DNA of 32,000 bases from Microcystis aeruginosa NIES-843 (GCF_000010625.1 NC_010296.1:30001-62000), one strand, 5' to 3'; shown: positions 2,336 to 22,235, counted from the first letter of the stretch. Notes: generated from the letters alone by a model not told the origin. Numbers and translations are program-made.

Positions 2336-2419
2336 GGAGAAGCACCGGGAGCAGAGGAGAGGGGGAGCAGGGGAGCAGAGGTTGTTTATCTTCTGGGTAC
2401 CCCTTTTCCTTGATTCACC
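2336..2419 (+). repeat. Purine-tract/pyrimidine-tract element, copy a (GGAGAAGCACCGGG...CCCCTTTTCCTTGAYTCAC)
   Basis: Recurs at 2856-2937 and 4125-4188. The purine run can pair with the downstream CCCCTTTTCCT. Confidence 0.6.
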
Positions 2420-2457
2420 AGAGAATTTTCTTCCGGAAATTTAAGCTGATCAGAGCT

Positions 2458-2518
2458 AAACTTAACAAAACTTCACAAAAACTTCACAAAAACTTCACAA
2501 AAACTTCACGGAAAACTA
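2458..2518 (+). repeat. Five phased ~11-bp A-tract repeats (CTTCACAAAAA and variants)
   Basis: Tandem units read directly from the sequence, immediately 5' of the TTGACG hexamer. Confidence 0.8.
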
Positions 2519-2552
2519 TTGACGAGAAGATGTCAAGGCCGCTTAATTAAAT
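2519..2552 (+). promoter_or_regulatory. Putative promoter of precursor gene 1
   Basis: TTGACG is a -35-like hexamer. An AT-rich TTAATTAAATTAATTAA block 17-19 nt downstream offers several -10 candidates. TTGAC/GTCAA inverted repeat. GGAGGA RBS at 2567-2572. Confidence 0.35.
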
Positions 2553-2580
2553 TAATTAACATCATTGGAGGATTTACCCC

Positions 2581-2766
2581 ATGAAAACCAAAAAACTGAC
2601 ACCCCGCAATGCTGCTCCTGTGCAACGGAAAAATACCGCTACCGTCTCTCGTGATGGCAATGCGATCATTCAACTTGATTGGGGAACTTTTTGTGTGCAA
2701 GAGGATGGGGAGGGAAATTGTAAAGAGTGGTACGAACTGCCGTTTGCGGGAGACGACGCAGAGTAA
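2581..2766 (+). CDS. pirE: Cyanobactin precursor peptide 1 (PirE/AcyE-like), 61 aa
   Basis: MKTKKLTPRNAAPVQRKNTATVSRDGNAI leader, then a variable region ending in Pro, then the C-terminal FAGDDAE macrocyclisation signal. A strong RBS precedes it. Confidence 0.85.
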   Translation: MKTKKLTPRNAAPVQRKNTATVSRDGNAIIQLDWGTFCVQEDGEGNCKEWYELPFAGDDAE

Positions 2767-2855
2767 TCTGCCCGATTCTAGCACGAACCTCAAATCAGGT
2801 CAAAAGTCTTTTTCTCCTTGCCAAGGCGCACGGTTGCTTCCTTGTAATTGACGGT

Positions 2856-2937
2856 GGAGAAGCAAGGGGTCAGGGGAGAGAGGGAGCAGGGGAGTACAGG
2901 TTTTTGCTCTTCTCGGTTCCCCTTTTCCTTGACTCAC
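2856..2937 (+). repeat. Purine/pyrimidine-tract element, copy b
   Basis: Homologous to 2336-2419 and 4125-4188. Followed by TTGACT-N17-TTAGAT. Confidence 0.6.
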
Positions 2938-3057
2938 GGGTGCTAGAAGACTTAGATTCAGGGAGATAAACCCGAAAATCTGTTAAAAATATAAGATGCT
3001 AAAAAGTCTGCGCTATAATACTCGATTAGGATGATATAAAGGTAATCAGGAGAAGCG

Positions 3058-3342
3058 ATGAACACTATCCAACTGACACCAGAAATAGAAGATTTGATTG
3101 CTCAACAAATTAAAACAGGAAAATATCAAGATGATTTAGCCGTTATTCAAGAGGGATTGCGTTTATTGGCAGAAAGAGACAGAATTTACCGAGGAAGATT
3201 TGAAGAATTGAAACGGGAAGTTATGATTGGCGTTGAGGAATTAAGACGACAGGAAGGAATTAATGCCGAAGAGGTTTTTTCAGAATTAGAAGAGGATTTA
3301 CAACAAATAGAGGCTAAGGGTTTCCCGATGAGTCAGAAATAA
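3058..3342 (+). CDS. parD: ParD-like antitoxin
   Basis: 94 aa, with MNTIQLTPEIEDLIAQQIKTGKYQ...GLRLL typical of ParD. Its stop overlaps the start of the ParE gene (ATAATG). Confidence 0.7.
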   Translation: MNTIQLTPEIEDLIAQQIKTGKYQDDLAVIQEGLRLLAERDRIYRGRFEELKREVMIGVEELRRQEGINAEEVFSELEEDLQQIEAKGFPMSQK

Positions 3343-3638
3343 TGTCAAAGATTATTTTCTCACCCTCAGCTAGATTGGATTTAAAGCAAGTTAATAGTTA
3401 CTTGGCTGGGAAAAATCCGCAAGCTGCTAGAATTTTAAAAGAAAAAATCCAACAGGCTTGTAAAAAATTAGCTAAATTCCCCAATCTGGGACGTAGGCGC
3501 GATGAGTTAATCCCTAGATTACGAAGTTTTCCAGTAGAAGATTATCTGATATTTTATTTCCCTCTTGAAAACGGAATTGAAATCGCAAGAGTAGTCAGTG
3601 GATATAGAGATTTAGATGCTATGTTTGATGTTGATTAA
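3342..3638 (+). CDS. parE: RelE/ParE-family toxin
   Basis: 98 aa, with FSPSARLDL...FPNLGRRRDEL...YLIFYFPLENGIEIARVVSG typical of ParE. Confidence 0.75.
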   Translation: MSKIIFSPSARLDLKQVNSYLAGKNPQAARILKEKIQQACKKLAKFPNLGRRRDELIPRLRSFPVEDYLIFYFPLENGIEIARVVSGYRDLDAMFDVD

Positions 3639-3728
3639 GAAAGCGATCGCATCAATCTAAGGGTGTCATTCTTCCCTGCTACCCAGTAGCATCGGCTGGG
3701 GGTTTCTTCGGGAAATTTAAGCTGATCT

Positions 3729-3779
3729 AAACTTAACAAAAACTCAACAAAAACTTCACAAAAACTTCACAAAAAACTA
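3729..3779 (+). repeat. Four phased ~11-bp A-tract repeats
   Basis: CTTAACAAAAA, CTCAACAAAAA, CTTCACAAAAA, CTTCACAAAAAA, directly 5' of TTGACA. Confidence 0.8.
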
Positions 3780-3814
3780 TTGACAAGAAGATGTCAAGGC
3801 CGGTTAATTAAATT
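3780..3814 (+). promoter_or_regulatory. Putative promoter/operator of precursor gene 2
   Basis: Perfect palindrome TTGACA-AGAAGA-TGTCAA (3780-3797), followed by the TTAATTAAATTAATTAA block. GGAG RBS at 3828. Confidence 0.35.
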
Positions 3815-3841
3815 AATTAACATCATTGGAGCATTTACCCC

Positions 3842-3997
3842 ATGAAAACCAAAAAACTGACACCCCGCAATGCTGCTCCTGTCCAACGGGAAAACACCGC
3901 TACCGTCTCTCGTGATGGCAATGCGATTGCGATGATCGCTCCGCTTTGGGATTTGGTAAGGTGGGGCGCTCCTTTTGCGGGAGACGACGCAGAGTAA
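3842..3997 (+). CDS. pirE: Cyanobactin precursor peptide 2, 51 aa (absent from the ORF track)
   Basis: Hand translation: MKTKKLTPRNAAPVQRENTATVSRDGNAIAMIAPLWDLVRWGAPFAGDDAE. The leader differs from copy 1 at one residue. Confidence 0.85.
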   Translation: MKTKKLTPRNAAPVQRENTATVSRDGNAIAMIAPLWDLVRWGAPFAGDDAE

Positions 3998-4124
3998 TCC
4001 CCCTGATTCTAGCACGAACCTCAAATCAGGTCAAAAGTCTTTTTCTCCTTGCCAAGGCGCACGGTTAGCCTCAAGGAATTGACGTACAACCCTAGTTAAT
4101 TCGGGAGTTTCGGATACCGGGCAC

Positions 4125-4188
4125 GGAGAAGAAGCACCGGGGGCAGGGAAGCAGTTTCTCTTCTCGGTTCCCCTTTTCCTTGACTCAC
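4125..4188 (+). repeat. Purine/pyrimidine-tract element, copy c
   Basis: Homologous to copies a and b. Followed by TTGACT-N17-TTAGGT. Confidence 0.6.
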
Positions 4189-4345
4189 GAGTGTTAGAAG
4201 ACTTAGGTTCAGGGAGATGAACCCCAGCCAACAGCTTACTACCCCAGTGTGATCGGGTTGGGGTCTTCTTCTCCTTCGGTTTGTACCTTTGACAGAATTA
4301 GATGAGCTATGATTAAAGTAAGATTTACTTATTCATACATCACAA

Positions 4346-4738
4346 ATGACTCAGATTACTATTAATTTACCAGTCAGTTTACTTGAATCAGCCCAATGTT
4401 TAGGAAAGGCTACAGAACGAGAGTTATCAGAGGTTTTAATTGATACCTTAGAAATCATTTTGCCTACCTTTAATAATCTCTCAGCTGTGGGCAATCATCT
4501 TGAAGTTTCCAATCTTTTAGATTCCGAAGTTATTGAATTAGCTAATTCAAAAATGGATGCTGTTCAGAATCAACGCTTAGGAGAGTTACAAGCTAAGGGA
4601 AAAAATACGGGCTTAACCGAAGCCGAAGGCTATGAATTATTAGTTTTAATCTCAATTTACCAAATGGGACAATTAAGAAAGTCAATAGCCTTAGCTGAAG
4701 CCGTTAAACGAGGTTTGAGAGAGCCTTTAATACCATGA
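4346..4738 (+). CDS. Hypothetical protein, possibly RHH-like, translationally coupled to the HNH gene
   Basis: 130-aa ORF. The N-terminal MTQITINLPVSLLESA resembles a ribbon-helix-helix beta strand. ATGA overlap with the next gene. Confidence 0.35.
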   Translation: MTQITINLPVSLLESAQCLGKATERELSEVLIDTLEIILPTFNNLSAVGNHLEVSNLLDSEVIELANSKMDAVQNQRLGELQAKGKNTGLTEAEGYELLVLISIYQMGQLRKSIALAEAVKRGLREPLIP

Positions 4739-5178
4739 GTTTTCTCACAGAAACCTTACGCCAAAAAGTTAAACAACGGGCAGGAAATCGCTGTGAATAT
4801 TGCCTAAGTCACCAGGATTATATTATGGGGAGATTACAAATTGATCATATCCAACCTTTAGCTAAAGGTGGTGCTAATACAGAAGATAATTTATGTTTAG
4901 CTTGTGAATTATGTAATCAATATAAATGGACTCAAACTGAAGCTATTGATCCCAAATCTGAGGTGTTGGTTTCCTTATTTAATCCTCGCCTTCAAAAATG
5001 GCAAGAACATTTTACTTGGACTCAAGAAGGAACGGAAATTATGGGAGTAACGGCTTGTGGTCGAGCAACAATTGTAGCTTTAAGATTAAATAGTAATCTG
5101 GCTGTTATTGTGCGTAAAAATTGGGTTAAAGCTGGTTGGCATCCACCTAATTTGCAGACGGAATCTCACCTTACCTAA
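4735..5178 (+). CDS. HNH endonuclease
   Basis: CEYC...QIDHIQPLAKGGANTEDNLCLACELCNQYK is an HNH/zinc-finger motif. Confidence 0.75.
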   Translation: MSFLTETLRQKVKQRAGNRCEYCLSHQDYIMGRLQIDHIQPLAKGGANTEDNLCLACELCNQYKWTQTEAIDPKSEVLVSLFNPRLQKWQEHFTWTQEGTEIMGVTACGRATIVALRLNSNLAVIVRKNWVKAGWHPPNLQTESHLT

Positions 5179-5211
5179 AATATTCCTTTAACAATCTAAA
5201 AACTGGCCATT

Positions 5212-6108
5212 ATGATAGTTGCTGACATTCAAAAAAGCTCCCTCAAAGAGCAAAGGCTACAATTTATTCGTAACCATCAACAAGCTTTCGATGTTGAGCC
5301 GATTTATCCTCTACGGCTGTTTGAAGATTTCGTGATGGGGGTTGAGGGCGATTGTACTATTCAAGCCTCTTGTAAGATAGAATTAGATCAACTCATTGCC
5401 TCAAGGTTTATGCTCTTTTTTAAAGATAAAGCTCAAGAATGGCAAAACTATCTAGCGCAGTCTTTAGCTTTTTTTCGGCAAGTTGAAAACCGAGTTGGTG
5501 TTAAATTAGACTATTCTTTATTACAGCAGTTCTTAGGACTTAATTTTAATTTCAGTAAAATCACGGTTTTCAGTACGGGTATTGATTTAAGGACTAATCT
5601 TGCTGATTCTAGTTTAAAAATGCACATCAGGCTAAAAGATTATCCTGAAAAAATCAACCAAGCGTTATTGTTAACCAGTGATAGTGATGATTTAATAGCT
5701 GTACGAGATTTTCTTTCCATTGTCGGCTTTGATTTCTATTTTGATGGCCGTAGTGCGATCAAAATTTACCCTGAAGTTGCAGAAACAGACTTTTTTAAAC
5801 CAGAAACTCAAGACAAAGTATGGCGACATCTTCCCAAATTTGTTTTAGAACCTCTTAAAGCAACAAGCTTATTTGGTTTTGGCTTTTCCAAAACAAATAA
5901 TAACCCAGTGCTTTACTACAGGCTCAAAAATCGTCAAGATTTAACCAATTACTTCAAGCTTAATGATACCGCCCAAAGAGTTCATAGCTTTTATCAGCAT
6001 CAAGATATTTTATCTAGTGTGTGGTTAGGTACAGCCCAACAAGAATTAGAAAAAACGAGAATTGAAAATGTTAGACTTTACTATTATAAACTCTTTGGTA
6101 AATTGTAG
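5212..6108 (+). CDS. pirF: Cyanobactin prenyltransferase (PatF/LynF/TruF family, ABBA fold)
   Basis: RLQFIRNHQQAFDVEPIYPLRLFEDFVMGVEGDCTIQASCKIE aligns with recalled PatF (RLQFVRTHQEAFDVKPTFPLPLFEE...EGSCSVESSCQVE). Similar length, 298 aa. Confidence 0.85.
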   Translation: MIVADIQKSSLKEQRLQFIRNHQQAFDVEPIYPLRLFEDFVMGVEGDCTIQASCKIELDQLIASRFMLFFKDKAQEWQNYLAQSLAFFRQVENRVGVKLDYSLLQQFLGLNFNFSKITVFSTGIDLRTNLADSSLKMHIRLKDYPEKINQALLLTSDSDDLIAVRDFLSIVGFDFYFDGRSAIKIYPEVAETDFFKPETQDKVWRHLPKFVLEPLKATSLFGFGFSKTNNNPVLYYRLKNRQDLTNYFKLNDTAQRVHSFYQHQDILSSVWLGTAQQELEKTRIENVRLYYYKLFGKL

Positions 6109-6187
6109 TAAATCTTATGTTAACCACTAAACTTCCCTGATATCAAGATACTCAAAAAGATAAAACTGCTAATGGAGACCATCAATA

Positions 6188-6520
6188 ATGCAAAGTATTC
6201 ACGCCTTAAAACAACTCTATGAGCTTGATGACTCTCAATGGCTAGGAGAAACCATTAGCTTGCTTAGAAATCATCAATTTCAACAGCTAGACTTAGAACA
6301 TTTAATCGAGGAATTAGAGGATTTGGGCAAAGAAAAGAAAAATGCGGTAGCCAGTCTTTTAGAACAGGTTATCCGCCATTTATTATTACTACAATACTGG
6401 ACAAAAGAAACAGAATATAATACAATTAATTGGCAGGAAGAAATTTATAACTTCCGTACTCAATTAAAGCGAGAGATGACGACCAATCTCCGCAACTATT
6501 TAGAGGAAATCCCTAGATGA
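6188..6520 (+). CDS. DUF29 protein, C-terminally truncated paralogue
   Basis: About 95% nucleotide identity to 7228-7545 over ~295 bp, then it ends in an ATGA overlap with the Uma2 gene. Confidence 0.7.
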   Translation: MQSIHALKQLYELDDSQWLGETISLLRNHQFQQLDLEHLIEELEDLGKEKKNAVASLLEQVIRHLLLLQYWTKETEYNTINWQEEIYNFRTQLKREMTTNLRNYLEEIPR

Positions 6521-7185
6521 TAGCAACTACAACAATTTCTCCTCAATTAACCATTCCACGCCTAGAAAATGGGGATAAGCTTACTCGTCGTGAATTCGAG
6601 CGTAGATATAAGGCTATGCCAAATCTAAAAAAAGCAGAACTCATTGAAGGAATTGTTTATATTATGGCTTCTCCCCTAAGAATTACGAATCATGGCAACC
6701 CTCATGCGCGTATTATTACTTGGCTAGGTAACTATTGGTCAAGTACACCCGGAACCGAATTAGGTGATAATTGTACGGTTCGTCTTGATACTGACAATGA
6801 ACCTCAACCCGATGCACTATTAAGAATTAAAAATGGTGGACAATCAACGATTAGTGAGGATGGTTATGTCGAAGGTGCGCCAGAGTTAATCGTCGAAATT
6901 GCAGCGAGTACCGTCTCCCTTGACTTACATCAAAAACTTAATGTTTATCGCCGTAACCAAGTGCAAGAATATCTAGTCTGGCGAGTTGAAGATGGAGAAT
7001 TTGATTGGTTTAGATTAACCAATGAAGAATATATTAAACTTGAACCGAACTCAGAAGGGATAATTTGTTCCCAGATCTTCCCTGGATTATGGTTAGATAG
7101 GGATGCCTTATTAGCCGGTGACTTAGCCAAGGTTTTAGAGGTTTTGCAATTAGGAATAGCTACGCTCAAACATCAATCTAGTTAG
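6517..7185 (+). CDS. Uma2-family (DUF820) endonuclease
   Basis: GAPELIVEIAASTVSLDLHQKLNVYRRNQVQEYLVW is the PD-(D/E)XK-like Uma2 core. Confidence 0.75.
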   Translation: MIATTTISPQLTIPRLENGDKLTRREFERRYKAMPNLKKAELIEGIVYIMASPLRITNHGNPHARIITWLGNYWSSTPGTELGDNCTVRLDTDNEPQPDALLRIKNGGQSTISEDGYVEGAPELIVEIAASTVSLDLHQKLNVYRRNQVQEYLVWRVEDGEFDWFRLTNEEYIKLEPNSEGIICSQIFPGLWLDRDALLAGDLAKVLEVLQLGIATLKHQSS

Positions 7186-7227
7186 AGTAATCTAAATTCA
7201 ACAAAATCAAGACGGAGATAATCAATT

Positions 7228-7674
7228 ATGCTAGGTGTTCATCAATTAAAACAACTCTACGAGCTTGATGACTCTCAATGGCTAGGAGAAACCATTAGCT
7301 TGCTTAGAAATCATCAATTTCAACAGCTAGACTTAGAACATTTAATCGAGGAATTAGAGGATTTGGGCAAAGAAAAGAAAAATGCGGTAGCCAGTCTTTT
7401 AGAACAGGTTATCCGCCATTTATTATTACTGCAATACTGGACTAAGGAGGCAGAATATAATATAATTCATTGGCAGGAAGAAATCTATAACTTCCGTACT
7501 CAATTAAGGCGAAAAATGACGGCTAATCTCCGTAATTATTTAGAAGAAGAATTAAACTATATTTATGAAGATGCGTTAGGTTTCGTCAAAATCAAAACAG
7601 CGAATACTGTGATTTTTCCCTCTCAATGTCCTTACTCACTAGAACAATTACTAGATCGCGATTGGTTGCCATAA
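7228..7674 (+). CDS. DUF29 protein (full length)
   Basis: LYELDDSQWLGETISLLRNHQFQQLDLEHLIEELEDLGKEKKNAV is the DUF29 signature. Confidence 0.75.
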   Translation: MLGVHQLKQLYELDDSQWLGETISLLRNHQFQQLDLEHLIEELEDLGKEKKNAVASLLEQVIRHLLLLQYWTKEAEYNIIHWQEEIYNFRTQLRRKMTANLRNYLEEELNYIYEDALGFVKIKTANTVIFPSQCPYSLEQLLDRDWLP

Positions 7675-7709
7675 AAATTAATTAAACAACAAAAAGAGAT
7701 GAAGAAATT

Positions 7710-8279
7710 ATGTTAATCACAAAACCCCGCTTTCAAACCTTTGCCGAATATCTACAATATGAGGATAATTCAGAGGAATCTTATGAATTATTTAACGGAG
7801 AATTGGTAGAAATGCCACCAGAATCAGGACTTAACTTTCAAATTGCTAATCGTCTTTTTCTAGTCTTTGCTTTAATGCTAGGAACCGATAGAGTCAGAGG
7901 ACATGGTTTAGAATTAGAAGTGAGAGGCGAACCGAAAAACCGTTATCCTGACTTAACCATTATTCGAGAAGAACATATTCAATTACTCTCCCAGAGAAAT
8001 ACGATTCTTCTTTCCATGTCACCCCCCTTATTAGTCCTTGAAGTGGTTAGTCCGGGGGAAATCCAAAGAGAGAGAGATTACATCGCCAAAAGAATTCAAT
8101 ATCAAGATTGTGGGATTCCCGAATACTGGATCGTTGACCCCCAAACTCAAACCATTTTAGTCTTAGAATTAAGAGGAAATACTTATACAAAAATCGGTAA
8201 TTTTAGCAATGATGACTTAGTAAAATCTCCTGGATTCAAAGAATTAAACTTAAAGGTTTTTGATGTATTTAATTCTTAA
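7710..8279 (+). CDS. Uma2-family (DUF820) endonuclease
   Basis: PPLLVLEVVSPGEIQRERDYIAKRIQYQDCGIPEYWIVDP is the Uma2 core. Confidence 0.75.
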   Translation: MLITKPRFQTFAEYLQYEDNSEESYELFNGELVEMPPESGLNFQIANRLFLVFALMLGTDRVRGHGLELEVRGEPKNRYPDLTIIREEHIQLLSQRNTILLSMSPPLLVLEVVSPGEIQRERDYIAKRIQYQDCGIPEYWIVDPQTQTILVLELRGNTYTKIGNFSNDDLVKSPGFKELNLKVFDVFNS

Positions 8280-8625
8280 TTTTATCGGTTAACCCAAGAA
8301 TTAAAAAATGATGAACGGCTTAACTATTCCCGGATTAAAAGAACTACAAAAACAAACGAAAGGCGCATCAGAAATAACCGTCGCCATTCTTGATGGTGTA
8401 GTTGATACCGACCATCCCTGCTTCAATGGGGCAGACCTAACCCGTTTACCCACCCTCGTCCAGCATCAAGCCACCGCGGGGCAAATGTCCACTCACGGAA
8501 CCCATATTGCCAGCCTCATCTTCGCACAACCCAATAGCGACATCCAAGGTATTGCCCCCCAGTGTCGAGGCCTACTCGTACCCGTCTTCTCCGACGATAA
8601 CCGTAAACTCTCCCAACTCGATTTA
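8222..8625 (+). repeat. 404-bp direct repeat, left copy (Uma2 3' end + intergenic + first 106 codons of pirA)
   Basis: Matches 13087-13489, with one indel in an A-run and a few substitutions. Confidence 0.9.
8308..8625 (+). pseudogene. pirA: Orphan 5' fragment of the PatA-type protease gene, truncated by an IS
   Basis: Identical over 106 aa to the start of 13172..14089. After 8625 the ORF reads into the IS terminus (LDFGQRKTDL...). Confidence 0.85.
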
Positions 8626-8789
8626 TTGGACTTTGGACAAAGAAAAACAGATTTGCGTAAAACTTACGCAAATAAAATTTGAGGCAATATCTCCTTTGTC
8701 TCAGCCAGAAAAAAAGCTGAAAAATAGCGGTTCTTAAGGTCTTCTTAGCAAGACTTAGGGAACTTTCATCTTTTCTTTTTTACTTTTTG

Positions 8790-11048
8790 CCCACATTCCG
8801 CACCCTAAGTGTCACAACGTCTCAAAAGAGGAAGGGGCGCGAGTCAAAATACTTATCTAGAGGAGTGAGTTGGCGGCAAGCTGCCGGCAACTAAGCCGAA
8901 AATTTCAGAGTTCCCCCAGTCATTCTCAATAAACAGTGCTTGTTGAGAATGACTAGGCAATCAGACTTAACATCTAGGGGGAGATGTTCCAGTTGCTCGC
9001 TTTGTTTTGTCACCCCTTGAAGTCAATCCATCTGGTCAAGATAAGAGATAATATTCTTGGCAAGGTTTGGGGAAAAATCTCAAAATGTTGCGCCTCTCAT
9101 CCGTTAAGTTGCTAATCTTTTGATTGTCTTGAATACGTAGGAGATGAATCCCTTGAAAGTTCTGAAATATCCAGCGTAATGTTGGTCGGTCAGTTAACTT
9201 ACCCAACGGATTTTTCAGTCCCGTCTCCTGCTGTTTTAAACTTAAACGAAGTTGTCTTTGACCAATAGTATAAACCAGCAGGCACAAGCCCATGAGCATG
9301 GCCATGACCTCGATTCTATGGGGAGATTTGAGAAAGACACTGTGGGCAAAAAAGCAGGGGTCTTTGAGAAAAGAAAATCCTCTTTCCGGAGCTTGTTGCC
9401 CTTTATATTTTTTGAGTATATCCTCACTGCTTAATCGTTGTTTCTCCAAATCGTTAGTTGCTAAAACGAATCGTCCTGCTCGTTTCTTTAGCCTCTCAAT
9501 GGCGGTCAAATTCAACTCTAATTTGGCTTGAACTTGATAGCTTTGAGAGGGTAAATCGTCTTTTGATTTGAGTTTTGACCCCTGGGACTCAGGCGGAATG
9601 AGATTGACTTTAATCTCCGTTAACTGATGAGATTTTAAGGAGTCAGATAATCCTTTGGCTATCGCCAACGCCACCGCTCTATTCTCAAATTCTCTTCGGG
9701 ATAGTTGCCGGATTTTTTCTTGGGCAGAATTCTTTTCCTGCTCGATTTTTTTCTCTAATTTTTTCAAGTCTGATTCTTGTCTAGCTTGACTTTCAACTAG
9801 CAACCATCTTTGTTCTATCCCCCCATAGTTAGAGATGGTTTCCCGCCAGGAATAACCCGGTATTTCTGAATCGGTTAACTCTTTTTCTGAGATGCTATCA
9901 ACCAACTCTTGAGCCTCTTTAATGCTTAATGGTACTCGAGACAACCAACGCATTTCTTTCATTAGTTTTAAATTCTCTTTGCTATAGAGGGCGCTATCGC
10001 CGACTATTAAACTGTCAAAGTCAACTTGTTTTTTAAATTCTCGGGCGATTTGACCAAAAACCGCTTTGTCCGCTTCATTTCCGTCCCCTACTTTCAGGAA
10101 TAAAGGTACATCTCCATCCCCACTTACGATTAAGTCAATCATAAATTGTTTTAAGTCAGGTCTTCGGTCGCGGGAGTATCCGTAGGTAATTTTTATTGGC
10201 TGTTGTCTGGTTTCAATTTCTTCTCCCACTGCTCCTGATTTCAGGATTTCTACTGTTGGGTATTCCTTGTTATATTCTCCTTCTACTGATAGAGAAGTCG
10301 AATCTAAATGGGAGTTCTCGGTTGCTACACCAAATTTTTTCACGGCCGCTAAACTAATCAGTAGGAAAATGACCGAAACATTAAGTTGATAAAGTTTGTC
10401 CATTACTCGACCAATTTTATCATCATTCAGGTGTTTTGGTTCGATGCCCTCTCCCAGCAGATGTTCGGTTGCTTTATCTTCAAAAAATTGAGGAAATAAA
10501 TACAAGGCTCGGGAGACAAATCCCAATCCATTCAGGATAATTGCTTTCACGACTTGCCCCGCTGTGACAATTTCTCCTCGCTCAATTGAGACTTGTTCGT
10601 TGATAATTTCAACGATTCCTATTTCATCGATAATTCCGGCTACTAATCCCAGATGGTCTAGATTTTTGACTTCAATTTCTGTTGATTGATTCATGGTCGA
10701 ACAGTCCACTCGCCTCAGTTTTCCAACAATTCCTATTGGGACTTAAACAAAACCTAAGACAAAAATAGCTTCAAACCCATACAGAGAGATGACTTAAGTT
10801 CAAACAACACTCAATCTAGTCTTCTTGAGGGTTTCAGTCATTTTTTTCTTATTTACCTCTTTCCCTTATTCAGAGGGTTTTTCAGTGCTTTTATGGCTCG
10901 AAAAGTGTCTAAGTCCCACTATTTTTTCATAATTAGGGTCTCAAAGCCCCCCTAGCGGCCACCGAGAAAACCTTCACCAGCTAAGTATTTTTACTCAAGT
11001 CTCTGGCGGGGGACAGCTTATGTGACAGTTGAGGGTGCGGAATGTGGG
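8790..11048 (-). mobile_element. IS1634-family (IS4 superfamily) element nested in the outer IS (2259 bp)
   Basis: Inverted repeats CCCACATTCCGCACCCT at both ends. 6-bp TSD TTTTTG at 8784-8789 and 11049-11054. Confidence 0.8.
9036..10709 (-). CDS. IS1634 family transposase
   Basis: 557 aa. The N-terminus NLDHLGLVAGIIDEIGIVEIIN and overall architecture are typical of IS1634/IS4 transposases. Confidence 0.8.
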   Translation of the reverse strand: MDCSTMNQSTEIEVKNLDHLGLVAGIIDEIGIVEIINEQVSIERGEIVTAGQVVKAIILNGLGFVSRALYLFPQFFEDKATEHLLGEGIEPKHLNDDKIGRVMDKLYQLNVSVIFLLISLAAVKKFGVATENSHLDSTSLSVEGEYNKEYPTVEILKSGAVGEEIETRQQPIKITYGYSRDRRPDLKQFMIDLIVSGDGDVPLFLKVGDGNEADKAVFGQIAREFKKQVDFDSLIVGDSALYSKENLKLMKEMRWLSRVPLSIKEAQELVDSISEKELTDSEIPGYSWRETISNYGGIEQRWLLVESQARQESDLKKLEKKIEQEKNSAQEKIRQLSRREFENRAVALAIAKGLSDSLKSHQLTEIKVNLIPPESQGSKLKSKDDLPSQSYQVQAKLELNLTAIERLKKRAGRFVLATNDLEKQRLSSEDILKKYKGQQAPERGFSFLKDPCFFAHSVFLKSPHRIEVMAMLMGLCLLVYTIGQRQLRLSLKQQETGLKNPLGKLTDRPTLRWIFQNFQGIHLLRIQDNQKISNLTDERRNILRFFPKPCQEYYLLS

Positions 11049-12540: not shown

Positions 12541-12551
12541 TCTGTAAGCTG

Positions 12552-13489: not shown

Positions 13490-14037
13490 GCGAGGGCGAT
13501 TGAACAAGCCGCCGAAAAAGGGGCAAAAGTGATTAATATTAGCGGCGGGACCCTCACTGATATGGGAGAAGCCGAAGACTGGCTAATTCGTGCCGTCGAG
13601 ATGTGTAACGAGAGAAATATTCTTCTCGTTGCTGCTGCTGGCAATGATGGCTGTGAATGCCTCCAAGTTCCAGCAGCCCTTCCCGCCGTCCTCGCGGTGG
13701 GTGCTGTTGATGCTAGAGGCCATCCCCTCGACTTTAGTAATTGGGGGGAAACCTACCAAAGCCAAGGCATCCTTGCCCCTGGAGAAAACATCTTAGGGGC
13801 AAAACCCGGAGGCGGGACTGTGCAACTGAGTGGGACCAGCTTCGCCGCGCCCATTGTGGCCGGAGTAGCCGCCTTATTACTCAGCTTGCAGGTGCAGCGG
13901 GGAGAAACCCCCAATCCTCACGCAGTCCGGGAGGCAATACTAAAAAGCGCCCTCCCCTGCCAATATGCAGACAGCGAAAATGAACCAAAATGTTTAGCCG
14001 GAGTATTGAACATTTCTGGGGCAATTAAACAACTAAT
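13172..14037 (+). pseudogene. pirA: PatA-type cyanobactin N-terminal protease, subtilisin domain (5' part of the interrupted gene)
   Basis: Catalytic triad contexts AILDGVVD, HGTHIASL and GTSFAAP. Long collinear match to recalled PatA (GIAPQCRGL.VP.FSDD...QLDLAR.IE...INISGG...LLVAAAGN.GC.CL.VPAALPAVLAVGA). Confidence 0.9.
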
Positions 14038-14224
14038 GGGACTTAAACGCCAAATAAAGATCAAATCGAGTATAATCGTTAAAGAGTAAGCACTTTACGT
14101 TGAAAGATCAGCGATGAAAGAGACAACCCCAGCCGCGATGCCCCCATGCTTTGACCGATGGTGTCGGCGGTTTGACAATTGCTTCAAAAACGAAGCGCAA
14201 AAAAACGGCTTCAGACAATATTTA

Positions 14225-15222: not shown

Positions 15223-16404
15223 ATTTAGGAGGATTATTAGGGGAAAGTGAGAGGAAAAACCTCACTCAAATGGCCAATAATGCCGTCGGAGTAGTTTATA
15301 ACCGATTACATCACTTTTTGACCGAATCTCCCTGGTCAGACCGTCAGGTGAATGAATGTCGGTTGCAAGTGATGAACCAATGCCGCCAGACGCAAATCCC
15401 CCGAGGATTTTCCCTGATTGTCGATGACTCAGGACATCGAAAAAGTGGCAATCTGACCGCCGGAGTTGGCAGGCAGTACCTAGGAGAAATTGGCAAGACA
15501 GACAACGGAATAGTCGCCGTCACTACCCATCTCTACGACGGCAAAAAAAGTGTCCCCCTAGACATTGAAATTTATCAACCGGCTAGTTCCTTAGCCGAGG
15601 GGAAAGAAGACAAAGAATTTAAGAAGAAACCAGAGATAGCGATAGATTTAATTGACCGGAGCTTAACCAGAGGCTATCGACCGAAAATCGTCTTAATAGA
15701 TGCTGGTTATGGCAACAACACAAATTTTCTCAAAGCCCTGGAAGAAAGAAAGCTAAAATACTTAGGAGGATTGGCAAAAAATCGAAAAGTAATTATTGAA
15801 AAAGAAGGGGGTGTGGAAGAAACAATCCAGCTTGAGCAACTAGCAAAAAGCCTATCAGAAAAGGATTGGGAGAAAATCACCCTAAATCTAGATAAAGAAA
15901 AAACGGTTTGGGTAGCGGTATTCAGAGCGAAAATATCTCAACTAGAAGGAGAAAGGAACTTGGCGATCGTCATGAATGCAAGTTCAATGGAAAAAGCCAC
16001 AGAGGTGGACTATTTCATCACCAATGTAGTTGAGGCAGATACAGTAACAGCTTCGTGGATAGTGAGGACTTACACCGAAAGAAATTGGGTGGAAGTATTC
16101 TACCGAGAAGCCAAAGGATGGTTAGGGTTAAGGGAATATCAAGTCAGGGATAAACGAAGCTTACTTCGTCATTTTATCCTGGTGTTTTGTGCCTATACAT
16201 TTATCCTGTGGCATAAGTTAACTGGGGGATTGCAAAGGCAGTGGGCGAATCGACCTTTAAACACTTTTGTGGAAGCCTTGGAAGCTTTTCGGACAGCGAT
16301 GTCTTTCCGTTTCTTTGAGTGGCTGACCGAGAATCGGGATGTGTTTGCCGCTTACAAAGCCAGTTTAGGCTTTGTTTGGGCTTGAAATTTGTTTAAGTCC
16401 CAAT

Positions 16405-17488
16405 AACAGGAGAAACCATGTCCGAATCTGTGGAAACCCAAGCAACAGTAGAAGCATCAGGCTGTGGCTGCGGTGGTACGCCCGAAACCCCTGAGGCTGA
16501 ACGCCAAAAACTCGAACTGAGTGCCGCAACTAGCGCACCGGTAATTCCCGTCGCCCAAATTCCCAATCCTGTCATCACCTCTCAAGGAGTATCTATGCCC
16601 GAAACCACTAATAAATCTGTTACCCCTAGCCAAGCTGCTGAACCTGCTGGCGGAATCGTCTATGCCATTGGCAGCTTGGGCTATGACTTCGGCTCCGAAG
16701 CCCGTCGGGACACATTTAAACAACTGATGCCGACAGCGGTAATTGGTGGTATTGAAGTTCCCTCTAATCCCTACGATGCCCGTCAGATGGTGGATTACCT
16801 GGCTGACAACCTCTCGGAAGCTAAATCCTTAATTTGGACCCTGAACCTGGAACTTACGCCAATTTACGCCATTGAACCCCTTGGCTCTTTTTCCCGCGAA
16901 GTTTATGCGGCTTTACAGGAACTTCTTTCGGGACAAGTGCAAGCAGAAGACAGCCCCGAATATATCCAGCGTGTTAGTATTCCTGGACGGATTACTGGAC
17001 GAACAGTACGCCTGTTCTCAGGACAAGTTGTTCCCGTCATTGAACCGGATAGCCCCCGGGGAATTTATGGTTGGCACGTTAATACTTTAGTCAGTGCGGC
17101 AATCGAAGCTGTTGGTGCAGAACAAACAGAAGCCCAAGAAAGCCAAATGCGCCGCACTTTGAGTAGTTTCCTCAACCGCATCTACTACGATTTACGCAAT
17201 TTAGGGCAAACTTCCCAAGACCGCGCCCTCAATTTTGCTGCGACTAACGCTTTCCAAGCAGCGCAAACTTTTTCTGAGGCTGTGGGTGCGGGGATGGAAC
17301 TCGATAGTATTAATGTTTCTAAGAGTCCTTTCTGTCGGCTGGATAGCGATTGTTGGGACGTACAGTTAAAATTCTTCGACCCGGAAAATAGCCGCCGCGC
17401 TCGTAAAGTCTTCCGTTTTACCATTGATGTCAGTGATTTAATTCCTGTCACCTTGGGCGAAGTTCGTTCCTGGTCTTCTCCTTATTAG
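16405..17488 (+). pseudogene. pirA: PatA-type protease, linker and C-terminal PatA/PatG DUF domain (3' part of the interrupted gene)
   Basis: VYAIGSLGYDFGSEARRDTFKQLMP...FRFTIDVSD...VTLGEVRSW is paralogous to the pirG C-terminus. It is in frame with 13172-14037 after IS excision. Confidence 0.85.
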
Positions 17489-17524
17489 TCCTTTCCCCTG
17501 CGCTGACTTCTGACTTCAAGTACA

Positions 17525-17586
17525 GGCGAAGCATTCGGATAGGAAATCTAAGGTTTCAGCGATAGGTTATGCCCGAATGCTTCGCC
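17525..17586 (+). promoter_or_regulatory. 14-bp perfect inverted repeat (GGCGAAGCATTCGG / CCGAATGCTTCGCC) with a 34-nt loop, spanning the pirB start
   Basis: Read directly from the sequence. The 3' arm covers codons 2-6 of the ORF starting at 17569. Confidence 0.5.
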
Positions 17587-17826
17587 CCTACCCCCATTAT
17601 TTACCCCAAAACAACCGTGAGACTTCCCAAACAATCTGCTCCCGTCAAACGACCCCATTTTATTCATCCCCATGAATGCGTCGATATTGTTCATGGAGAT
17701 GGCGAAGACTTGGTATCTATCCTGGTGAAGTTGGTTCATGGAGCTAACTACAATGATCCGGCTCAGTTTCAATACCCTCACTATGGCTATCTGAAAATGT
17801 CCTCTTTTGGCGGTTTTCGTTATTAG
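17569..17826 (+). CDS. pirB: PatB-like conserved cyanobactin-cluster protein
   Basis: 85 aa, positioned directly after the patA homologue. The HECVDIVHG...LVHGANYNDP...KMSSFGGFR motifs match recalled PatB/AcyB proteins. Confidence 0.6.
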   Translation: MPECFAPTPIIYPKTTVRLPKQSAPVKRPHFIHPHECVDIVHGDGEDLVSILVKLVHGANYNDPAQFQYPHYGYLKMSSFGGFRY

Positions 17827-17949
17827 TCAAGGGTAGAAAATATAGTCTTTATTAATCTGTCATTAAAAGGCAATCTGCCGTAACAAATAATGACAGCATG
17901 AGCAACACTGAAAACCTAGATTCACCTACTCACCTATCACTCCCATTTT

Positions 17950-18909
17950 ATGACGGCAATTCCTGTTGATTTAGTCATTGTGATTGATACCAGTGTCTCC
18001 GTTAAAGCGGAGGCCGAAGGATTGAGTCAGGCGGCGGAAACGGCGATCGCCAACGCCCGTTCTCACTGTCCCTCAGACCTGCGAGTGATCTGGCTGGGGA
18101 TCGAAGGAACCTGGAAAAACACCCAATTTGAGCGCACAGTTCGAGACTATCTAAGCAAAACCTGTGCCATTCCCGAATCAGCCTTAAAAAGCCGAAAAAA
18201 AGGTGAACTCCCATCAGGGGGAGCCCAGGAAGATGCGGCGCGGGTGATGCAAGATCTTGCCACTCATTTTGATTGGCGGACTGGGGCGAAAAGGGCGATT
18301 TTTTATCTAGGAGATGAAGCCTTAGATGCAGGCGGGGACAAAACCCTTGCCAAGGATATTGAAGCCGCTAACCAGGCGATTCAAGGAGCTAAAACGGCGC
18401 AAGTGATCATTCATACCTATTGTGGTCAATCTAAAAGTCGCTATCGTCACACGATTGAAGCTGAATATGCTCGCGTCGCCCAAGAAACTGGGGGTCAATC
18501 TTTCACCGCTGAAGGTTCTCTCAGGGATTTTGCCACGGTTCTCGAACAAATCATTTGTGGGAGTCAATCTCTTCCTCAAATCCCCTTAACCGAACCGCAG
18601 AACAACGATACGCCAACAACTGCTTTAGCAACTGACGGCGATCCACAACCTGTATTACAACAAACTCATGGAGAGCATCAAACTATGTCTAAATCCAAAG
18701 ATTCTACAGAATCAGCAGCCGCTGCTGCGAATGTTACTCAACCCACCCCAGAAAAACCCAAGACTGACCAACCAGAAACAACTGAACCTAAAACTAAATA
18801 CATTCCCGCCACTGGTTTAGAAGATTACGGACGCTGGAAAACCATGTTCAAAGACCGCAAGGCGAATCCCAATGATCCGCCGTTTCGTCGGGGTCGAATC
18901 TGGTCTTAA
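17950..18909 (+). CDS. VWA-domain protein with a PatC-like C-terminal tail
   Basis: N-terminal DLVIVIDTSVSV (DxSxS MIDAS-like) ... AIFYLGDEA. A Pro/Thr-rich linker. The C-terminus TGLEDYGRWKTMFKD...PPFRRGRIWS resembles PatC-family proteins and sits in the patC position. Confidence 0.55.
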   Translation: MTAIPVDLVIVIDTSVSVKAEAEGLSQAAETAIANARSHCPSDLRVIWLGIEGTWKNTQFERTVRDYLSKTCAIPESALKSRKKGELPSGGAQEDAARVMQDLATHFDWRTGAKRAIFYLGDEALDAGGDKTLAKDIEAANQAIQGAKTAQVIIHTYCGQSKSRYRHTIEAEYARVAQETGGQSFTAEGSLRDFATVLEQIICGSQSLPQIPLTEPQNNDTPTTALATDGDPQPVLQQTHGEHQTMSKSKDSTESAAAAANVTQPTPEKPKTDQPETTEPKTKYIPATGLEDYGRWKTMFKDRKANPNDPPFRRGRIWS

Positions 18910-18952
18910 ACTTTGTCCATTTTTCCTGCAAAACTTTGTCTATTTTTCCCGC
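18908..18952 (+). repeat. Two 22-bp direct repeats (AAACTTTGTCYATTTTTCCYGC), 20/22 identical
   Basis: Read directly. They lie about 100 bp upstream of precursor gene 3. Confidence 0.7.
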
Positions 18953-19053
18953 AAACAAATTGTTTAAAGTTGACAATAGTTAACAGAAAACTCTTGACAA
19001 AGATCGTGTAAAGCTTTTAGTGTTATCGACAACTACCTTTGGAGTAACTTACG

Positions 19054-19209
19054 ATGAAAACCCCAAAACTGACCCCTCGCATTACCGCCCCGGTTCAACG
19101 AGACAATATCAGTACCGTTCCTAGTGATGGTAATGTGATTACCCCTGCTACCTTCTGTGATTTAGCCACCAAGCAATGTTATCCCTTTGCGGGTGACGAC
19201 GCAGTGTAA
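19054..19209 (+). CDS. pirE: Cyanobactin precursor peptide 3, 51 aa (absent from the ORF track)
   Basis: Hand translation: MKTPKLTPRITAPVQRDNISTVPSDGNVITPATFCDLATKQCYPFAGDDAV. GGAG RBS upstream. Confidence 0.85.
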   Translation: MKTPKLTPRITAPVQRDNISTVPSDGNVITPATFCDLATKQCYPFAGDDAV

Positions 19210-19223
19210 TTTGTTCTTCCTGG

Positions 19224-19271
19224 CAGGTAGGCAGTCTTTTTTTACATGAATTGTTCGCGCTTGCCTACCTG
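19224..19271. terminator. Possible bidirectional stem-loop between convergent genes
   Basis: CAGGTAGGCA (19224-19233) pairs with TGCCTACCTG (19262-19271). A T7 run follows the first arm. The loop is long (28 nt), so this is weak. Confidence 0.3.
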
Positions 19272-19280
19272 ACAAAACCA

Positions 19281-20072
19281 TTAATCTTCAGGTTCTATCC
19301 CCAAGGCCCTTAACTGTTCCGCTAGGCGATCGGCTCGTTGTCGTTCCTGTTCGGCTCGTTGTCGTTCCCGTTCAGTAGATTCCTGGGAAGTTAACAACAA
19401 GTTACCTTCCCCATCCCACCAGCGAAGCCAGGGAAAGAATTGATTTTGGTATTCTCCCTGCCAAATTCCTAACTCTACCTTTAAAGGAACAATGGGATAA
19501 TGACCGCGCTGATTAGGAGTCATTTTTTGGTAACGACCATTAACTAACTGGTACATCTCGATCTGGGCCTTGTTAACTTCATAAATCCCATAAAAAGGAA
19601 TTTGAATCGCTCGCTCATAGATCCAAAATTTACCCTTAACAGGCGTTTTATCCCGTTCTTCTTCACCATTGCCCGAGACAAATTCTAAGGCAATGACTGG
19701 TTCAATGGTTTCTTTCCACATCACGAAGGAACGCCGGACTTGACCCTCAATCGTTGTGGGGACATGGGGAACATAAAACCAATCGGGAGCAACAGCACCC
19801 TTTTCTAGGGATTCTGGATACTCTGGCAATCGCCAATAAATCCCACAATCTCGACCCAGACAGTAATTACCGTCAGGATGTAATTTGTCCAAAATGGGCG
19901 TGATCGTATCCGTTAAAAGGTCTGCCTGGGGAGGCTCTTGATAGTTTTTCACAAAACTTCCATCTTTATCGGGGAGTTGGGTGTGATCGGGTAAAGGGGA
20001 ATCGCAATAAACCGTTGCAGAAGGGTCCTGAATTGTGGTTGAGGGTTGTGCCGTTGGGGTCATTGAACTCAT
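19281..20072 (-). CDS. Uma2-family (DUF820) endonuclease with a C-terminal coiled-coil tail
   Basis: PDWFYVPHV...EPVIALEFVSG core and an ERERQRAEQERQRADRLAEQLRALGIEP tail, both common in cyanobacterial Uma2 proteins. Confidence 0.75.
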   Translation of the reverse strand: MSSMTPTAQPSTTIQDPSATVYCDSPLPDHTQLPDKDGSFVKNYQEPPQADLLTDTITPILDKLHPDGNYCLGRDCGIYWRLPEYPESLEKGAVAPDWFYVPHVPTTIEGQVRRSFVMWKETIEPVIALEFVSGNGEEERDKTPVKGKFWIYERAIQIPFYGIYEVNKAQIEMYQLVNGRYQKMTPNQRGHYPIVPLKVELGIWQGEYQNQFFPWLRWWDGEGNLLLTSQESTERERQRAEQERQRADRLAEQLRALGIEPED

Positions 20073-20139
20073 CTTTAATTCCCCTATTTTTGTTATCTAG
20101 CTTTTATTCTATAACTGTTCTTGAAAACCTGCAAAAACT

Positions 20140-22235
20140 ATGCCTGATCTCAATGCTATCCCCGGAATGACCGCTCTTCGCTCCCAGACAAAAGGCGATC
20201 CACGCATCAAAATCGCCGTTCTTGATGGACCGATTGACTTAGATTGCGCCTGCTTTCAAGGAGCAAATATTACCCGCCTTGATCCCTATTGGTCGCAAGA
20301 ATTTCCCATCGATCCGCAACACTTACAAGCCTTTTTAGATGTAGAAAAAAGTGCCAAAAGTGATGAAGAAAAAGGTGATATGTTGAAAGAAGCGATTCCC
20401 GATGAAAACATCCTCCAGAGTTTGCATTTGCGCTTCCATGCTAACCATATTATCAGCACCATTTGCGGCCAGCCAGATTCACCTGTAGAAGGGATTGCTC
20501 CTAACGCTACTGTAATTAATATTCCCATCGCCTATAGCAACGAAGATTTTATTAATCCCCTCAATCTTTCTCGCGCAATTAGTACCGCTATTGAACAGGG
20601 AGTTAATATTATCCATTGTGCCGCTTGTCATCCAACTCAAAGCGGATAGCTCACGAATTTATTGATAAAGCAATTCGTCAAGCTCAAGCTAATAATATCC
20701 TGGTGATTGCCCCCGGAGGTAATGATAAGGGAGAGTGTTGGTGTGTTCCTGCGGTATTAGAAAATGTCCTGGCGGTGGGAGCGATGAAAGATACAGGCGA
20801 GCCATTTAAATTTAGTAATTTTGGTGGTAAATATGCAACTCAAGGGATTCTCGCTCCAGGAGAGAATATTTTAGGCGCTCAACCCGCAACTGATGACCCC
20901 ATTCGCAAAAAAGGGACTAGCTGCGCCGCTCCCATTGTGACAGGAACAGCCGCTTTATTGATGAGTTTACAATTAGAACAGGGTTTATCTCCTGATGCTG
21001 AAGCAGTAAGGGCCGCCTTGATTAATAGTGCCATCCCCTGCGATCCTAATGAAGTAGAAGAACCAGAACGCTGTTTATTAGGAAAAATTAATATTGCGGG
21101 TGCTTATGAACTGCTGACGGGAGAGAAATTACAAACTGTTGAAGCGGATAACAATTTGTCGAATAATATCATAGAATCGGCGGTAATTCCGATGACAGTG
21201 ACAACCTCGGTTATCCCATCTAATACAACCGAGATGGCGACTCAGGGAATAACTATAACCCCCCCAACAGCAGCGACAATAGAACTGGCGATCGCTCCTA
21301 GCAATGCTTCAGAAAATGTTTCCTCAACTGGATTAATACAAAATAATCAAACAAATAAAAATATTGTCTTTAATAGTGTCGTTCCTAGTCAACGTTCAAA
21401 CCTCGTTTATGTGTTAGGAACTTTAGGTTATGACTTCGGAACAGAAGCGCGTCGGGACACCTTTAAACAATTAATGCCAAGCATCACGATCGATAATCTT
21501 GAATTACCATCCAATCCCTACGATGCGCGGCAAATGGTAGATTATTTAGAAAGTAATCTATCAGAAACTAAGTCTTTAATTTGGACAGTCAATTTAGAAC
21601 TAACTCCCATATATGCGATTAAACCAGTGGGAGCTTTTGCCGCCGACATTTATCAAGTCATCCAATATATGTTAGCGGGTCAAATATTACCAGAATCTGA
21701 CGAAGATTATGTGGAAAGGGTGAGTATCCCCGGTATGCTGACCGAGGAAACTGTGAAACTTTTTTCTGGTCAAATTGTTCCCGTCATCAAGGTTAATAGT
21801 CCCAGGGGAATGTATGGCTGGAAAGTTAATACTTTGATTGAATCAGCGCTAGAAACTGTTAGCGCAGAACATGAAATCGCCGATGAAGCGAGGATGCGGC
21901 GTTCTCTGACCAGTTTCTTGAATCGCATTTATTATGACTTACGCAATGTCGGACAAATCGCCCGGGATCGCGCTTTAAATTTTGCAGCTACTAACGCTTT
22001 TCAAGCTGTACAAACCTTCTCCCAAGCAGTAGCGCTGGGAATGGAACTACACAGCATTGAAGTGGAAAAAAGCCCTTTTTGTCGCTATGGTAGTGAATGC
22101 TGGGATGTGAAATTAAAATTCTTCGATCCCGAAAATGGTCTGCGGGCCAAACGAGTTTTTCGCTTTACCATTGATGTCAGCGATCGCACCCCTGTAACTT
22201 TAGGTGAAGTGCGTTCTTGGGCTGTTTCTAAATAG
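20140..22235 (+). pseudogene. pirG: PatG-type cyanobactin macrocyclase (subtilisin + capping insert + C-terminal DUF), no oxidase domain, 1-nt frameshift near 20645
   Basis: Two overlapping ORFs, 20140-20649 and 20616-22235. HCAACHPTQSG* continues in the -1 frame as IAHEFIDKAIRQAQANNILVIAPGGN...GTSCAAP. This matches recalled PatG (NIIHCAFCRPTQTSEGEEILVQAIKK...). Confidence 0.85.

Follow-up and report, generated by a model that had tools for sequence, protein, structure and literature searches.

Positions 2,336 to 22,235 of a 32,000-nucleotide stretch of the Microcystis aeruginosa NIES-843 genome (NC_010296.1:30001-62000, hereafter the window) hold a cyanobactin gene cluster with intact precursor genes and damaged processing genes. 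The window was analysed by a six-frame listing of open reading frames (ORFs) and by hidden Markov model (HMM) searches with Pfam and NCBIfam/TIGR models. The locus is almost certainly the pir (piricyclamide) cyanobactin cluster of M. aeruginosa NIES-843, in which a pathway that works in intact relatives has decayed. No evidence contradicting the identification as pir cluster was found.

Leikoski et al. (2012, PLoS One 7:e43002, PMC3428304) described the pir cluster of NIES-843 as 19,655 bp long, spanning 32581-52235 of the genome; it is also named 'mae' (PMC3428304; review PMC4663559). In the window, the start of pirE1 and the stop of pirG enclose positions 2581-22235, corresponding to the published coordinates at an offset of exactly 30,000. 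The ORF lengths measured in the window equal those in Table S1 of PMC3428304 (61, 94, 98, 51, 130, 147, 298, 110, 222, 148, 189, 371, 356, 319, 51 and 169 aa). As published, the second insertion sequence (IS2) measures 2367 bp and has a 3-bp repeat, and the 404-bp duplication and the pirG frameshift (nucleotide 508) were likewise recovered. The identity with the published locus rests on the coordinates and lengths in the paper, not on a direct sequence match.

According to the published account, the cluster has three precursors and neither PatD nor an oxidase domain. Its pirA contains two insertion sequences, one beside the 404-bp duplication and the other of 2367 bp with a 3-bp repeat, and pirG (MAE_00690) is frameshifted at position 508. 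None of the predicted products was found by liquid chromatography-mass spectrometry (LC-MS) of NIES-843 (PMC3428304). The account was repeated in a 2015 review (PMC4663559). Because coordinates, lengths and lesions equal those of PMC3428304, the locus has to be regarded as already described: the cluster with its three cores, the two insertions, the pirG frameshift and the chemical silence have been in print since 2012, and a review followed in 2015. The initial annotation, which was made from the sequence alone, had pointed to a described transposase-inactivated pir cluster in Microcystis, and the window turned out to hold that very locus. Additions to the published description are small and concern the nested anatomy of IS1, the intact protease domain of PirA and a long, conserved PirC allele.

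Counterparts were obtained by a scan of species-representative genomes and by look-ups of metagenome contigs. Collinear uninterrupted clusters were present in locus L004 (Microcystis sp. M015S2), L047, L048, L005, L084 and L085, the last two being Microcystis-type contigs. A synteny comparison had been proposed as a way to an uninterrupted allele, and L004, L047, L048, L084 and L085 supplied such alleles.

Precursors, PirF, PirB and the absence of a heterocyclase

The FAGDDA-coding motif was detected three times in the window, against 0.02 occurrences expected by chance. In each of three precursor ORFs the core ends with Pro and is followed by FAGDDAE/V, and all three matched TIGR04446, the anacyclamide/piricyclamide precursor model, with E values of about 1e-24. 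Searches of the window with the FAGDDA-coding motif and a leader regular expression revealed neither a fourth precursor nor any remnant. The precursor genes and two further intact genes of the cluster are as follows.

2581-2766, plus strand: pirE1, 61 aa, TIGR04446 6.5e-24; the start is the published cluster start (32581)
3842-3997, plus strand: pirE2, 51 aa, TIGR04446 7e-24
19054-19209, plus strand: pirE3, 51 aa, TIGR04446 1.1e-24
5212-6108, plus strand: pirF, 298 aa, intact, Tyr O-prenyl/geranyl transferase family
17617-17826, plus strand: pirB, 69 aa from a GTG start; TIGR04220 (PatB family) 1.2e-37 for the ORF 17569-17826

The core of pirE1 is DWGTFCVQEDGEGNCKEWYELP, followed by FAGDDAE, and the gene is 100% identical to pirE1 of L004. 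The DNA encodes this core with the ending ...CKEWYELP, in agreement with Table 3 of PMC3428304 and in disagreement with Table 1, where ...CKGWYELP is given for NIES843; the version in Table 1 is probably a typographical slip. The core of pirE2, APLWDLVRWGAP, is the one listed for NIES843 in Table 1 (PMC3428304). Compared with the pirE1 cassette, the flanks of pirE2 are 89-93% identical and the cores are not alignable. The core of pirE3 is TFCDLATKQCYP, known as a disulfide-bridged piricyclamide from pirE4 of strain PCC 7005 by Table 1 and by heterologous expression (PMC3428304). A copy of the pirE 3'-flank repeat is located at 2347-2418, ahead of pirE1.

PirF matched TIGR04445 (LynF/TruF/PatF) with 2e-118 over profile positions 1-282 of 282. 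It aligned over its full length to the crystallised PirF geranyltransferase, PDB 6PGM, with 3.8e-167. At the position of Phe222 of PagF (SLFFTGLSK), PirF of the window has a Gly (SLFGFGFSK), and Gly is also present in 6PGM. We take Phe222 of PagF to be the donor-switch position, Phe limiting the donor to C5. Because of the Gly at this position, together with the known biochemistry of PagF and PirF, PirF of the window is predicted to catalyse geranyl rather than prenyl transfer.

The longer ORF of PirB (85 aa) begins at 17569, within a hairpin insert of 98 bp (17500-17597). L004 is without this insert and has an ATG at the position of the GTG in the window. The start of PirB is probably the GTG at 17617, not the ATG at 17569; the upstream ATG in the hairpin is a spurious lengthening of the ORF.

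PatD was searched for by tblastn in the 32 kb of the window, using a TIGR03604-verified PatD-type protein from Trichodesmium as query, and was not detected, the best match having E=0.8. Nor was PatD found among the large ORFs of the window, none of which is longer than 557 aa; all large ORFs were assigned to other families. The intact orthologous loci L004, L047 and L048 are likewise without PatD. The initial annotation had named three intact PatE-like precursors ending in Pro-FAGDDAE/V, a PatF-type prenyltransferase at 5212-6108 and a PatB homologue, and had stated that no PatD-like cyclodehydratase ORF exists in the window. All four statements agree with the ORFs, the profile matches and the search for PatD, as does its overall assignment to the heterocyclase-free, anacyclamide/piricyclamide type of cyanobactin locus.

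In the following account of the pathway, the gene identities, the limits of the insertions, the frameshift and the lack of PatD were derived from the sequence, and the enzyme roles and the negative LC-MS result were taken from the literature. In intact relatives, each PirE presents one hypervariable core that ends with Pro and is followed by FAGDDAE/V. PirA removes the leader, and PirG cuts after the core Pro and joins the ends, resulting in a ring of ordinary amino acids only. Paired cysteines give a disulfide, and PirF may geranylate or prenylate Tyr. Thiazoles and oxazoles are not formed, because neither a heterocyclase nor an oxidase is present. The intact cluster of PCC 7005 made TFCDLATKQCYP in Escherichia coli (PMC3428304).

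Lesions in pirA and pirG

The protease gene pirA is affected by a duplication and by insertion sequences, and the macrocyclase gene pirG by a frameshift. The features concerned are the following.

8222-8625, plus strand: duplication copy 1, 404 bp, consisting of the end of a Uma2 gene, intergenic sequence and the first 318 nt of pirA (8308-8625)
8626-13086, minus strand: 'IS1', 4461 bp including the nested inner element; outer element with a DDE_5 transposase at 10981-12540 (DDE_5 1e-37)
8790-11048, minus strand: inner insertion sequence within IS1, 2259 bp, with a transposase at 9036-10709 carrying DUF4277 and DDE_Tnp_1
13087-13489, plus strand: duplication copy 2, 403 bp, running on into the remaining pirA
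13172-14036, plus strand: pirA part 1, residues 1-288, complete subtilisin-like N-terminal protease domain (Peptidase_S8 1.7e-38)
14037-16403, plus strand: IS2, 2367 bp, with a DDE_5 transposase at 15270-16385 and the terminal repeat TGGGACTTAAAC
16407-17488, plus strand: pirA part 2, linker and C-terminal (DUF) domains PatG_D (1.5e-16) and PatG_C (3.3e-42)
20140-22235, plus strand: pirG, PatG-type macrocyclase, frameshifted; the repaired product has 698 aa

The ORFs 13172-14089 and 16418-17488 are two halves of one PatA/PatG-family protease, matching TIGR03895 with 1.6e-106 and 7.4e-163, respectively. Removal of IS2 and one TAA, joining 13172-14036 to 16407-17488, restored an in-frame PirA of 648 aa. 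The target duplication TAA of IS2 is located at 14034-14036 and 16404-16406, and L004 is continuous across the site. Part 1 of pirA covers the TIGR03895 profile positions 1-234 and is collinear with the intact pirA of L004. The break caused by IS2 falls after the protease domain, and the 305-aa ORF 13172-14089 keeps the whole catalytic domain. Relative to L004, with protein identities of 97% for PirA and 98% for PirG, the window has the following extra DNA: IS1 with the duplication, IS2, the genes for a hypothetical 130-aa protein and an HNH endonuclease, the 98-bp hairpin, 829 bp at 17828-18656 and a 142-bp hairpin.

Upstream of IS2, the two copies of the duplication (8222-8625 and 13087-13489) are about 99% identical. 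A second, duplicated 5' fragment of pirA is present at 8308-8625, which corrects the initial annotation. IS1 lies between the copies and has imperfect terminal inverted repeats at 8626-8681 and 13031-13086 (48/56 bases match), beginning TTGGACTTTGGACAAA. The inner element is bounded by a perfect 17-bp inverted repeat, CCCACATTCCGCACCCT, and by a 6-bp target duplication, TTTTTG, and its excision restores the 513-aa ORF of the outer transposase. The published single 'IS1' is two nested elements. Between IS1 and the start of the truncated pirA, 85 bp of native sequence are left. A 188-bp element resembling a miniature inverted-repeat transposable element (MITE) is present at 10734-10921 inside the inner insertion sequence. 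This element has ends (TGGGACTTAAAC...) similar to those of IS2, and it would represent a third level of nesting. The DDE_5 transposases of IS1 and IS2 were considered as belonging to the same element, which was rejected, as they are unrelated at the protein level.

In pirG, the coding sequence is split into the overlapping frames 20140-20649 and 20616-22235. One T is missing at 20647/20648, where the window reads GGA-TAG and four intact orthologues read GGATTAG. The loss leads to a stop after residue 169, ahead of the catalytic Ser. Because the stop codon precedes this residue, the macrocyclase of NIES-843 cannot be made. The repaired PirG aligned to the PatG macrocyclase structures 4AKS, 4AKT and 4H6X with about 1e-102, unbroken through the macrocyclase insert. 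The insert comprises about residues 50-97, and PatA structures align only from residue 98. An oxidase domain was not found on PirG: Pfam gave only Peptidase_S8, PatG_D and PatG_C, the subtilisin domain stands at the very start of the protein, and the gene immediately upstream is the antisense Uma2 gene.

These results match the initial annotation, which had placed an interrupted PatA-type protease at 13172-17488 and a PatG-type macrocyclase with the capping insert and without an oxidase domain at 20140-22235, and had regarded pirA and pirG as disabled. Similarity of 5212-6108, 13172-17488 and 20140-22235 to the PatF, PatA and PatG families was found with HMMs and structures.

In NIES-843, the nested pair of insertion sequences beside the 404-bp duplication severs pirA from the sequence further upstream, IS2 separates the protease domain of PirA from the C-terminal domains, and the reading frame of pirG ends after residue 169, short of the catalytic Ser. 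From the insertions in pirA and the frameshift in pirG, it is predicted that no macrocycle can be made in NIES-843, with the precursor genes, pirF, pirB and pirC being intact.

Three points weigh against this reading of the locus as the published cluster in a dead state. The first is the length of IS1, measured as 4461 bp and given as 4361 bp in PMC3428304; a misprint in the paper is suspected. Secondly, we infer the inactivity in NIES-843 from the sequence plus one published negative LC-MS result. Thirdly, a residual leader cleavage by PirA is formally conceivable, because IS2 leaves the whole catalytic domain in one 305-aa ORF.

The third point leads to a cluster that is only partly dead. 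The ORF 13172-14089 may then remove leaders, yielding linear peptides that keep FAGDDAE or that are processed by enzymes encoded elsewhere. Peptidase_S8 extends over residues 21-264 of the ORF with the His and Ser motifs HGTH and GTSFAAP visible, the PatA structures, which align here, were solved with constructs of about 280-307 aa confined to the protease domain, and three precursors and pirF are intact. We nevertheless consider this improbable. The promoter may be lost with only 85 bp of native upstream sequence left before IS1, the stop before the catalytic Ser of PirG leaves no macrocyclisation, and LC-MS found no predicted cyanobactins (PMC3428304), though linear forms may not have been sought.

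Even less probable is that the frameshift in pirG stems from faulty sequencing or assembly, or arose by mutation while the strain was kept in culture in the laboratory, leaving pirA alone to explain the silence. The frameshift was analysed as real by the authors in a finished genome (PMC3428304), and the site has no long homopolymer. The change does concern a single base within a TT dinucleotide, and four of the four orthologues examined are intact there. The cluster would be inactive in either case, so the overall reading as a decayed pir cluster would be unchanged.

PirC and the PatC tail

17950-18909, plus strand: pirC, long allele, 319 aa, with a predicted N-terminal VWA domain that a disordered linker joins to the 34-aa PatC tail

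The initial annotation had described a PatC-like tail on a VWA protein. The tail was supported by TIGR04447, which matched residues 288-319 (the last 32) of the 319-aa PirC with 2.1e-14. The VWA assignment remained below the thresholds of Pfam and NCBIfam and is carried only by the predicted fold. All VWA profile matches were subthreshold (Pfam VWA_4 E=0.038, Integrin_beta 0.062; TIGR03436 7.6e-4, scoring 19 bits where the cut-off is 81). In an AlphaFold2 model based on 17 homologues, 10-residue blocks of residues 1-200 had mean predicted local distance difference test values of mostly 73-96, with two blocks at 54-58. The model has alternating strands and helices as in the Rossmann-like alpha/beta VWA fold. 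Its top Foldseek hits in the PDB were almost all VWA/I domains, with E values of 5e-6 to 1e-4, and included integrin beta, the CD11b I domain (TMt 0.62), CMG2, TFIIH p44 and NorD. A DTSVS motif of the DxSxS type, resembling the metal ion-dependent adhesion site (MIDAS), is located at residues 13-17; D13 and D122 are invariant, and the alignment has 56 invariant columns across 17 sequences. A VWA fold of the PirC N-terminus is supported by the structure prediction.

Short and long pirC alleles differ by one clean 829-bp indel (17828-18656) directly after pirB. The short PirC of 73 aa is encoded in L004, L047, L048 and L005, and also in PCC 7005 (Table 2, PMC3428304). The long PirC of 319-320 aa is encoded in the window, L084 and L085. 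Full-length orthologues with 41-99% identity, including those of Rivularia PCC 7116 and Phormidium FACHB-1136, have the same architecture. They are located in cyanobactin clusters, among them L084 and L085, where pirA and pirG are intact. The VWA-PatC protein is, as judged from these sequences, a conserved long allele and not a local fusion accident. The VWA fusion, highlighted initially as worth a closer look, is therefore real, albeit as a conserved allele. Its origin as an accidental read-through from a rearrangement in a decaying locus, for which one might cite the 73-aa PirC of other Microcystis pir clusters, the entry of PirC as '75/319' in Table S1 of PMC3428304, where only 75 of 319 residues are treated as PirC and the VWA domain is not commented on, and the ribosome-binding-site-like context kept by the internal Met246, has next to no probability given the conserved orthologues in intact clusters and was rejected for practical purposes. 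Because the PCC 7005 cluster with its short allele was productive in E. coli, the VWA domain is dispensable for macrocycle formation.

Homologues of the VWA module of PirC, about 55-62% identical, are present in many cyanobacteria and in Candidatus Entotheonella (P0005-P0120). They are joined to differing C-terminal parts, among them DUF697, PF14339 and an endonuclease/exonuclease/phosphatase domain. The conservation of the module is unusually high for a shuffled domain.

The PatC tail was surveyed in 80 related loci. Its pattern is TGLEDYxxW...FRRGRIWx, and it invariably stops one residue short of the C-terminus. In cyanobactin clusters it was present alone (70-90 aa) or on a VWA/MIDAS, LamG or CBM-like domain. 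The combination with VWA/MIDAS was found in the window, L001, L003, L006, L030, L033, L084, L085 and Rivularia PCC 7116. Laminin_G_3 domains carrying the tail had Pfam E values of 1e-22 to 1e-60. Tailed VWA, Laminin_G_3 or CBM-like proteins were encoded in L003, L006, L017, L020, L028, L030, L033, L037, L044, L045, L056, L059, L063 and L081, and a short PatC and a long tailed protein occurred in tandem in L003, L006 and L063. Long tailed PatC proteins were present in clusters both with and without PatD. A restriction of the long VWA-PatC to heterocyclase-free clusters was considered and rejected, as L030 and L033 have VWA-PatC together with PatD.

Tentatively, the PatC tail might not be an independent protein but a portable docking module, through which exchangeable binding domains are attached to the machinery of cyanobactin synthesis or to its products, an idea that we regard as rather doubtful. 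If true, it would provide a handle on the long-unknown role of PatC. In the literature searched, neither a link of cyanobactins or PatC with VWA/von Willebrand domains nor a discussion of the modularity of the PatC tail was found, which does not prove that none has been published.

Passenger genes, flanking mobile DNA and known systems

Several genes within the cluster were classed as passengers.

3058-3638, plus strand: ParD/ParE pair between pirE1 and pirE2; ParE_toxin 1.7e-17, ParD weak
4346-5178, plus strand: hypothetical protein of 130 aa and HNH endonuclease of 147 aa; HNH 1.4e-12; no counterpart in L004
6188-8279, plus strand: two DUF29/Uma2 gene pairs (Pfam DUF29, Uma2), the first DUF29 truncated to 110 aa
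19281-20072, minus strand: Uma2-family gene, antisense to the cluster; Uma2 4.9e-17

The locus of about 20 kb had been regarded as stretched by unrelated selfish genes. Two groups can be told apart among them. IS1, IS2 and the pair of hypothetical and HNH genes are additions in the NIES-843 lineage. The DUF29/Uma2 genes, the one ParDE pair and the antisense Uma2 gene also occur in intact clusters; these are long-standing passengers and not part of the decay of this strain. The ParDE pair is present at 98% identity in the intact L004. Equivalents of the DUF29/Uma2 genes are located between pirF and pirA in L004, L010, L047 and L085. The antisense Uma2 gene is 95% identical in L004, L047 and L048 and is also present in L084.

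Two hairpin inserts, of 98 bp (17500-17597) and 142 bp (22253-22394), are missing from L004. The 142-bp insert is GC-rich, with CCCCCC/GGGGGG stems. Compared with L047, the window contains an extra 5.1-kb mobile block at 24474-29615, which lies between 119-bp direct duplications at 24355-24473 and 29616-29734. The duplicated sequence is the 5' region of the der/engA GTPase gene, and this region is uninterrupted in L047. The block contains a TnpB/IS605 OrfB gene, a truncated C5 DNA methylase, a MITE-like repeat array and ISAzo13 transposase fragments. The 404-bp and 119-bp duplications suggest that long duplications beside mobile DNA arise by a recurrent process. Upstream of pirE1, the segment 335-2563 carries minus-strand genes for an ISL3-family transposase (676-1890) and a HicA-like toxin (2040-2285). 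In L047, the left flank and the first pirE lie about 280 bp apart, which marks this segment as a further insertion.

As a discovery, the locus matters little. It is a clean textbook case of how insertion sequences break down a natural-product cluster in a bloom-forming cyanobacterium rich in transposons. Minor new angles are the finer anatomy of the insertions, with nested elements and long flanking duplications, and the circulation of PirC alleles with and without VWA in Microcystis-type pir clusters. The occurrence of the PatC tail on several binding domains could guide work on the function of PatC.

Among known systems, the active cluster of PCC 7005 and the clusters L004, L047, L048, L084 and L085 are closest. 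They have the same gene order as the window: pirE(s), pirF, DUF29/Uma2, pirA, pirB, pirC, pirE, antisense Uma2 and pirG. PirA, PirB and PirG are 91-98% identical to those of the window at the protein level. Cores shared with the active or intact pir clusters are TFCDLATKQCYP and, in L004, the core of pirE1. Unlike the window, these clusters are without IS1, IS2 and the deletion in pirG.

The pat (patellamide) cluster of Prochloron, patA-G, is similar in its PatA/PatG-type subtilisin proteases, which bear DUF domains at the C-terminal end, and in the macrocyclase insert. PatB, the PatC tail, a protein with the PatF fold and the logic of the precursors are common to both as well. In contrast to pat, the window has no PatD, no oxidase domain on the G protein, and several precursor genes with one core each, and its F protein appears from its sequence to be of the active prenyl/geranyl transferase type. 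PatA-family proteases about 50% identical to PirA were also observed outside the cyanobacteria, in Nonomuraea (Actinomycetota) and in metagenome-assembled genomes of Dehalococcoidia and Solirubrobacterales (L064, L069, L075-L077, L079 and L083). The anacyclamide (acy) and prenylagaramide (pag) clusters share with the window the heterocyclase-free organisation, the all-proteinogenic macrocycles and precursors in TIGR04446, and PirF aligns with PagF of pag at about 1e-145. They differ in belonging to other genera and in the residue at position 222 of PagF, which is Phe in PagF and Gly in PirF.

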